From IMG/VR virus record IMGVR_UViG_2700989519_000005: a stretch of DNA of 6,313 nt. One strand, 5' to 3'. The notes under the pieces are model-generated. The model was not told where the DNA came from and did not search any database. It was given only the letters and a program-made list of their open reading frames with translations. Positions 2,242 through 2,533 of this stretch are shown piece by piece. The DNA is from a virus (lineage: Duplodnaviria; Heunggongvirae; Uroviricota; Caudoviricetes). Numbering within the stretch: position 1 is the first letter of the stretch; each line of letters begins with the position of its first letter. Both the position numbers and the translations under genes were made by a program.

Positions 2242-2401
2242 AGCCTCACCTCCGCAAATAACGGATGGCGTAGTTTTACACTGAGAAATGAAAGGGATTT
2301 GAAAAGAAAAAAACGCAAAAGCGGGCGAAACGATATATACAGTAAGGAAAGCACTCTATCCAACAAACCACCCACAGTTAATCGGAATAAAAGCAGAGTG
2401 C

Positions 2402-2527
2402 TTATGAATGATCGCACGCCCGAAGGTTAGTATTTCTGCACAGCAATTTTGCAAAAAAAGGCGATCATTCATAACTTAAACGTCTTTCAGTCACTCCGGG
2501 ATTTCCCATCATCGCAGACTGAAAGAC
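2402..2527 (-). repeat. Two large inverted repeats (potential stem-loops) in the tRNA-to-holin spacer
   Basis: Seen directly: TTATGAATGATCGC (2402-2415) is the exact reverse complement of GCGATCATTCATAA (2461-2474), a 14-bp stem with a 45-nt loop. GTCTTTCAGTC (2482-2492) is the exact reverse complement of GACTGAAAGAC (2517-2527), an 11-bp stem with a 24-nt loop containing a GGGA/TCCC mini-hairpin. No convincing ORF in this spacer. Confidence 0.5.
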
Positions 2528-2533
2528 TCTGAC

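Follow-up and report, generated by a model that had tools for sequence, protein, structure and literature searches.

The spacer between the tRNA array and the holin gene of this lambdoid prophage holds an RNA fold that is real, lies on the minus (late-operon) strand, has been kept with compensatory changes in relatives and behaves as a mobile module. We are moderately confident that the spacer is a conserved structured non-coding RNA that ends an autonomous phage tRNA operon as its 3′ trailer and would act in trans after its release. The Q-to-lysis interval of lambdoid prophages is already home to Shiga toxin genes and to the small RNAs StxS, AgvB, AsxR, Pas and STnc100. What appears to be new is an uncatalogued family with covariation-supported structure in this slot, found in about a tenth of complete Escherichia coli genomes and in several enterobacterial genera, physically tied to phage tRNA operons and probably expressed in lysogens, and a candidate for the way in which tRNA cassettes of prophages bring additional regulatory cargo along.

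The stretch of DNA analysed (the window; IMG/VR record IMGVR_UViG_2700989519_000005, 6,313 nucleotides) is the late-control and lysis region of the prophage. Read on the minus strand, DnaC-like and DnaB-like replication genes, NinH and the antiterminator gene Q are followed by a tR′-like hairpin, four tRNAs, the spacer and the lysis genes (Table 1). The hairpin downstream of Q was read from the sequence; weak terminator-type Rfam matches overlap it, and it is absent from the output of a simple terminator scan. We read it as a putative tR′, which would end a short late-promoter leader transcript. Positions 111–6279 are 99.7% identical to the chromosome of Shigella flexneri and an IS600 is inserted immediately past Rz, so the locus is an IS-eroded prophage remnant.

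Table 1. Features of the window around the spacer, with positions counted from its first letter.
Feature	Position	Strand	Details
209-aa ORF	1393-2022	minus	downstream of the holin gene
Holin, P21-type class II	2241-2026	minus	PF04971, E = 5.5e-35; first lysis gene past the unit; start codon 2241-2239
Holin Shine-Dalgarno	2253-2244	minus	GGAGGTGAGG
Small hairpin	2252-2264	minus	CCG-UUAUUUG-CGG
Spacer under study	2533-2242		between tRNA-Gly(TCC) and holin
Spacer ORF, 59 aa	2238-2417	minus	GTG start
Spacer ORF, 43 aa	2299-2430	plus	'hypothetical protein' in two phage records
Spacer ORF, 38 aa	2356-2472	minus	ATG start
Decayed intrinsic terminator of the tRNA-RNA unit	2307..2326	minus	GCCCGC-TTTT-GCG then T7
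H3	2349..2403	minus	outer 8-9-bp stem and inner 10-bp G-U-rich helix, in which near-invariant strand GUGGUUUGUUGGAU pairs with a variable strand
H2	2402..2474	minus	13/14-bp closing stem around an inner hairpin (UUUUGCA / UGCAGAAA, loop AAAUUGCUG) and a short CC-UUCG-GG hairpin
H1	2482..2527	minus	11-bp stem, internal loop, inner GGG/CCC hairpin
Inverted repeat 1	2402-2415 / 2461-2474		14-nt arms, 100% complementary, 45 nt apart
Inverted repeat 2	2482-2492 / 2517-2527		11-nt arms, 100% complementary, 24 nt apart
Additional inverted repeat	2349-2357 / 2395-2403		9-nt arms, 100% complementary, 37 nt apart
Four-tRNA array	2534..2844	minus	ARAGORN; Rfam tRNA matches of 56-70 bits
tRNA Gly(TCC)	2534-2608	minus	
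tRNA Thr(TGT)	2612-2687	minus	
tRNA Arg(TCT)	2690-2766	minus	
tRNA Met/Ile2(CAT)	2768-2844	minus	first tRNA, 5′ end at 2844
tRNA-operon sigma-70 promoter	2854..2882	minus	-35 TTGCAG (2882-2877), 17-nt spacer, -10 TATTAT (2859-2854), then GC-rich discriminator TCTGCCTCC
tR′-like intrinsic terminator downstream of Q	2933..2955	minus	ACCCGCC-TCCG-GGCGGGT then T6
Antiterminator Q	3044-3460	minus	PF06530

A first-pass annotation made from the letters alone had drawn attention to two exact inverted repeats in the spacer. Our repeat search returned both at the positions it had given, together with a third, shorter one absent from that annotation. By our own estimate, the chance expectation in 290 bp is about 1e-4 for a perfect 14-mer inverted repeat and about 1e-2 for an 11-mer. 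RNA of the minus strand (2230–2540) folds at −92.2 kcal/mol (z = −4.2, with 0 of 100 shuffles as good), compared with only z = −1.5 for the plus strand of the same spacer. The minus-strand fold consists of three successive hairpin domains, H1, H2 and H3, of which H2 and H3 make up a core of about 130 nt. Since tRNA-Gly(TCC) ends at 2534, H1 begins 6 nt past its CCA end, in agreement with the annotation. A clean three-way junction in H2, formed through a second inner hairpin, was considered and dropped: it holds in HK639-type versions, but two of its pairs fail in the window type. None of the three hairpins carries a U-tract, and they are not terminators; the terminator-like element is instead the GC hairpin with its T-run at 2326–2307.

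Homologues came from two independent scans of IMG/VR for exact patterns, the first placed in the H2 loop and the second in H3, each of which returned at least 120 contigs. Fixed patterns inflate the conservation of their own blocks; when checked among the sequences that the other pattern had brought in, each block was still conserved. Over 150 prophage loci of Enterobacteriaceae, as well as phage HK639, carry the H2–H3 core, and at least 80% of the 199-bp core was present in 529 of 5,426 complete E. coli genomes (~10%), in which no annotation covers the element. The species representatives that carry it belong to Escherichia, Shigella, Enterobacter, Citrobacter, Yokenella and Phytobacter. Pattern matches in Desulfobulbaceae, Flavobacteriales, Luteibaculum and Sideroxydans were discarded as chance, as the covariance model built from our alignment (R1) does not detect them. 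The HK639 copy is 77% identical to that of the window and lies between a Q-like gene and a holin gene (phage HK039 is not involved). Pairwise alignment of the two revealed compensatory substitutions in all three stems and G–U wobbles that can pair only in RNA of the late-operon strand.

Across 46 distinct versions of H2–H3 (alignment A2), the RNAalifold consensus structure contained 41 pairs, and double compensatory changes were seen in 13 of these. Overall, 97.6% of pair cells were paired, versus 33–47% when the 3′ partners were slid by 1–3 columns. None of 500 shuffles matched the observed pairing, the number of double-change cells or the covariation score, a control that overstates significance because the aligned sequences are related; more weight attaches to the slid-partner control and to the count of independent pair types. 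The outer H3 stem, with compensatory changes in five of its eight pairs, alternates between CUCU/AGAG, UCUC/GAGG, CUCC/GGAG and UCUC/GAGA. H1 showed a similar signal in 40 distinct versions (alignment A3), with 96.6% of cells paired, 39–49% when slid, and three compensatory pairs. Folding and covariation across homologous prophages, the check that the first-pass annotation had proposed, found the paired arms kept (13 compensatory pairs in H2–H3 and three in H1) and strongly supports the small structured RNA that it had listed among its options. The strand is equally clear: many G–U pairs would become C–A mismatches on the opposite strand, and R1 matches 2348–2477 with 134 bits on the minus strand versus 16 bits on the plus strand.

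Two short stretches were conserved in sequence as well as in pairing. The 3′ strand of the inner H3 helix (GUGGUUUGUUGGAU) was nearly invariant, being present in 53 of 59 parsed versions from the set retrieved independently of that block, while its partner strand occurred in at least 12 variants that keep the pairing via G–U; the helix is moderately stable (about −8 to −10 kcal/mol). The H2 loop (AAAUUGCUG) was likewise largely conserved in the independently retrieved set. Both stretches persist among variants that are 75–80% identical overall.

Perfect inverted repeats are also what a DNA-level element would leave, such as a recombinase or transposase site or a MITE, and the 43-aa plus-strand ORF annotated in two phage records could point to a small protein gene. 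We consider either origin extremely unlikely. Pairing is kept up through G–U, which would mean nothing for symmetry at the DNA level; the covariance model depends strongly on the strand; and a repeat search of the window found no direct-repeat flanks. As for a protein, stops interrupt all six frames over the 128-nt core in 54 of 90 distinct homologous versions, and differences in T-run length shift the reading frames among homologues. No Pfam family matched the 38-aa or 43-aa ORF, the two spacer ORFs that the search covered, and with no frame conserved we rejected a small protein, in agreement with the earlier view that the spacer holds no credible ORF. With the covariance model and coordinates, the element could be annotated where records now have a gap or wrongly call a 43-aa hypothetical protein.

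Covariation also bears on whether the spacer could be a non-functional residue, either degenerate pseudogenes of tRNAs or a scar left by moron exchange, kept by hitch-hiking with the tRNA array. H1 has GATGATG and a GGG..CCC hairpin in common with the 3′ half of tRNA-Gly, in HK639 a degenerate tRNA-Gly lies just upstream (HK039-type loci aside), and this interval is known for recombination and as a slot for morons (Tree et al. 2014, PMC4104026). Against this, every helix is maintained by compensatory changes and the module recurs behind differing upstream sequences, and we regard a residue as highly improbable. The more specific idea that H1 is a relic of the tRNA-Gly 3′ half was rejected, with a local alignment no better than shuffles (p about 0.2). 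The footprint of a lost or exchanged moron, another option of the first-pass annotation, is not supported: the element itself is a conserved mobile module under structural constraint. The same annotation was right that this slot holds stx in Stx phages, as the Stx2a prophage Sp5 has its tRNA array there and the last tRNA is directly followed by a terminator and then stx2AB.

We next consider the transcription unit in which the element lies. A promoter scan of the window recovered the promoter-like site at 2854..2882. Its pattern, TTGCAx-17/18-TATTAT/TATCAT with a GC-rich discriminator, is kept before the first tRNA across loci with otherwise unrelated upstream DNA, and promoter conservation stops a few bases 5′ of the first tRNA. 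Sp5 has a matching promoter before ileZ (TTGCAG-17-TATTAT-CCTGCGCCC), where differential RNA-seq mapped the primary transcription start site that drives the tRNAs (Sy et al. 2020, PMC7547250). A covariance-model search of Sp5 found no copy of the element. We conclude that the element is optional cargo, carried by a tRNA operon that is self-contained and occupies the moron slot; Sp5 has the same promoter and tRNAs without it.

At the other end of the unit, an intrinsic terminator lies 15–30 nt past H3 in nearly all variants, represented by three unrelated sequences that sometimes occur in tandem. The terminator of the window resembles the one after argO in Sp5. In close relatives it is intact (GCCCGC-TTTT-GCGGGC then T4), and the lineage of the window presents a decay series from GCGGGC-T4 through GCGGG-T5 and GCGG-T6 to GCG-T7, with the window having the weakest form. 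A Rho-independent terminator with a U-tail, the 3′ module expected of an Hfq-dependent trans-acting small RNA, is present in nearly all relatives and reduced to a 3-bp stem with T7 in the window, so that in this copy the RNA may have no defined 3′ terminus. Stem G–C pairs give way to extra T's along the series, which could be either drift in a dead prophage or tuned read-through into the holin gene. Allowing for that decay, the element has the position of a tRNA-operon trailer, directly 3′ of the last tRNA within a promoter-to-terminator unit.

The arrangement varied between relatives. In 113 of 157 loci, tRNA-Gly, H1 and H2–H3 are ordered as in the window. In about nine loci tRNA-Gly directly abuts H2 and H1 is missing, which makes H1 an optional module. 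Where tRNA-Gly precedes it, the element starts 0–6 nt past the CCA end. Roughly two dozen loci (~15%) have another upstream neighbor, mostly a small ORF whose stop codon is 4 nt away, and for that reason the term 'tRNA trailer' does not fit every context. Synteny was otherwise constant, with a Q-type antiterminator gene, tRNAs, the element and a lysis cassette of varying holin families. STnc100, IsrI or IsrJ adjoins the element in related loci, so the Q-to-lysis interval is a cluster of small RNA modules.

From this layout, we propose how the element would be made and used. The unit would comprise its own sigma-70 promoter, the four tRNAs, the RNA and the terminator, nested between the Q-proximal terminator and the holin gene. 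In a lysogen, the tRNA promoter would drive the tRNAs together with the RNA and transcription would stop at the terminator, which would keep the holin silent and shield the lysis genes, whose products are lethal, from a tRNA promoter that is constitutive. In lytic growth, polymerase modified by Q would arrive from pR′, transcribe the unit and pass the terminator. Processing of the tRNA 3′ ends by RNase E and RNase P would free the RNA, and its terminal hairpins would stabilize it; we infer the discrete RNA species, its ends and its stability from sequence. Once freed, it would act in trans, as a regulatory or protein-binding RNA, with the GU-rich H3 strand and the H2 loop as the likely recognition surfaces. 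That the RNA is probably trans-acting is suggested by sequence conservation in excess of structural need.

A cis-acting role would account for part of the same evidence. The structure could be a 5′ cap that protects the lysis mRNA after tRNA excision, or a 3′ exonuclease barrier or termination helper for the upstream tRNAs or ORF. Stable 5′ hairpins protect against RNase E in E. coli; H1 lies 6 nt past the CCA end, H2 lies 0–2 nt past it in some relatives, and the module is always at the 3′ end of the upstream unit, right before the terminator. We nevertheless think a purely cis-acting structure unlikely. A generic stabilizer needs structure alone, yet the H3 strand and the H2 loop keep their sequence, and Sp5 runs the same tRNA operon without the element. 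One or two terminators, and in relatives also STnc100 or IsrI genes, lie between the module and the lysis genes, and because these intervene the lysis mRNA does not begin with the module in lysogens. The first-pass annotation had suggested processing or termination signals for the tRNA precursor, which holds only in part: the termination half fails, there being no U-tract in the hairpins and, in nearly all relatives, a separate terminator past H3, and as for processing, the conservation exceeds what a generic signal needs.

The terminators also weigh on a riboswitch or attenuator, in which H2–H3 would be a sensor that decides termination before the lysis genes, and on a put-like variant in which the RNA would modify polymerase to read through. 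A multi-helix conserved fold followed at once by an intrinsic terminator, upstream of regulated genes, is what such a device would look like, and the two adjacent long stem-loops superficially recall the put RNAs of phage HK022, which are about 70 nt long, have two adjacent stem-loops and belong to the early operons, downstream of PL or PR (PMC9378689). Both are phage cis-transcribed RNAs with two neighboring stem-loop domains upstream of terminators. However, three unrelated terminators, often in tandem, follow the same H3, so no conserved antiterminator pairing is possible, and read-through from a constitutive promoter into the holin gene would be lethal. A Q antiterminator gene is always present. 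Unlike put, the element has a core of about 130 nt and sits in a late leader where Q protein is present; a search of HK022 23000–40751, the early region with putL and putR, with R1 and filters off gave a best score of only 9.6 bits, and we rejected a put-like antiterminator. An attenuator or put-like function is, in our view, very unlikely.

Returning to the trailer RNA acting in trans, its partner might be a protein. Co-expressed with the tRNA array, a structured effector could be a decoy or inhibitor of defense nucleases that target tRNAs, or of tRNA processing or repair factors, or an RNA that sequesters a protein. We hold this version to be rather improbable; if true, a lysogen or an infecting phage would protect translation by it, and the structure, the near-invariant strands and the strict linkage to tRNA-Gly would reflect protein rather than mRNA binding. 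For base pairing with an mRNA, the GU-rich block (GUGGUUUGUUGGAU) was considered as a free GcvB-like seed and rejected in that form, being paired in the consensus fold unlike a classical exposed seed; we kept it as a candidate recognition strand because of its strand asymmetry.

Comparison with known RNAs yielded analogues in position and no relatives in sequence. Rfam 15 was searched with the whole window (E ≤ 1) and with the spacer (E ≤ 10), the spacer giving only insignificant C/D-box-like matches. These C/D-box (K-turn) matches lie over H1, with E = 1.4–8.9 and 10–13 bits, and do not place the element in that class. No Rfam match to STnc100/PasD (RF02076) was found for the element in either search, STnc100 is a separate neighboring gene in relatives, and blastn found no similarity between the element and the HK639 copy of STnc100, which led us to reject homology. 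The models for AgvB (RF02702) and AsxR (RF02703) gave no match, and an AgvB-like CA-rich plus-strand RNA was rejected because of the poor fold of that strand and the minus-strand specificity of the covariance model. Pas genes were located from the supplementary data of PMC8550237 and the loci of EPEC E2348/69 compared, taking sequence similarity to the E2348/69 genes as the measure of membership (as used by Zhu et al. 2026). For PasA, PasB and PasC as well as PasD1 and PasD2, blastn with word size 7 against four Pas-bearing loci returned only chance matches and R1 returned none; all five were rejected. A full-text literature search for the conserved sequence blocks found no papers.

The element shares its niche (the Q-to-lysis interval or 'PR' moron'), the late-operon strand and, in nearly all relatives, an end at an intrinsic terminator with Pas, STnc100, AgvB, AsxR, IsrI, IsrJ and StxS. 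Unlike these small RNAs of the slot, it has no promoter of its own directly upstream. Outside phages, tRNA operons of E. coli provide two trailer RNAs, RtT of the tyrT operon (RF00391) and the 3′ETS-leuZ sponge of the glyW-cysT-leuZ operon. Like them, the element lies directly 3′ of the last tRNA in an operon with its own promoter and terminator, from which tRNA processing would free the RNA. By comparison, it is phage-borne and much more structured and, at about 130–180 nt, longer than 3′ETS-leuZ, and Rfam found no match to RtT in it. RtT and 3′ETS-leuZ may be regarded as the nearest functional analogues; the position matches, homology does not. Taken together, our verdict from sequence comparison is that the element would be a new, uncatalogued structured-RNA family of the PR' moron slot, configured as a tRNA-operon trailer.

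Several further observations concern the interval around the element. STnc100 (in up to three copies in Fels-1), IsrI and IsrJ all occur in the Q-to-lysis interval (loci L001, at 2706–2911 and 3338–3410, L170, L131 and L169). IsrJ-like sequence coincides with the short pR′-to-tR′ leader in related phages, which suggests that IsrJ may be an early-terminated late transcript, like StxS in Stx phages. Salmonella phage Fels-1 (L170, 2501–2575) has the H2 domain only, 86.7% identical to HK639 and situated behind a 120-aa ORF; other sequence stands in place of H3, and this copy looks like a natural truncation of the module. Within the tRNA array, the second slot (window 2690–2766) is hypervariable among otherwise similar prophages, occupied by Lys(UUU) in 59 loci, by Arg(UCU) here, and elsewhere by Phe(AAA), Leu(UAA), a suppressor-like 'Stop(UUA)' tRNA and tRNAs with abnormal anticodon loops, while the Met/Ile2, Thr and Gly positions are stable between loci. 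Such hypervariability is reminiscent of an arms race against tRNA-targeting defenses.

The two ends of the window bear marks of rearrangement. The first ~110 bases resemble what we take to be a 23S rRNA fragment and abut the start of IS600 (77–408; IS3-family orfA, PF01527). Every E. coli genome matches part of 1–420, at a median of eight places. Complete E. coli genomes all lack the junction between the rRNA-like segment and IS600, and in Shigella flexneri SFBU1023 the match starts only at position 111; the junction is probably a contig-end or assembly join, or else a strain-specific IS-mediated rearrangement. The last ~60 bases (6253–6313) match sequence that is repeated elsewhere in Shigella and E. 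coli loci and are probably an IS end, where the prophage is cut off upstream of the DnaC-like gene, which leaves an IS-bounded remnant.

In the lysis cassette, the holin gene is followed by the 209-aa ORF, a SAR-type lysozyme gene and Rz. The 209-aa ORF, between the P21-type holin and the lysozyme, matches no Pfam family, and close relatives have a YdfR-family gene in its place; because of this replacement, we propose a second cargo slot within the cassette. Finally, the small hairpin at 2252–2264 overlaps the holin Shine-Dalgarno just 5′ of a dual-start MKSM motif, and is reminiscent of the sdi-type structures that set the ratio of holin to antiholin.
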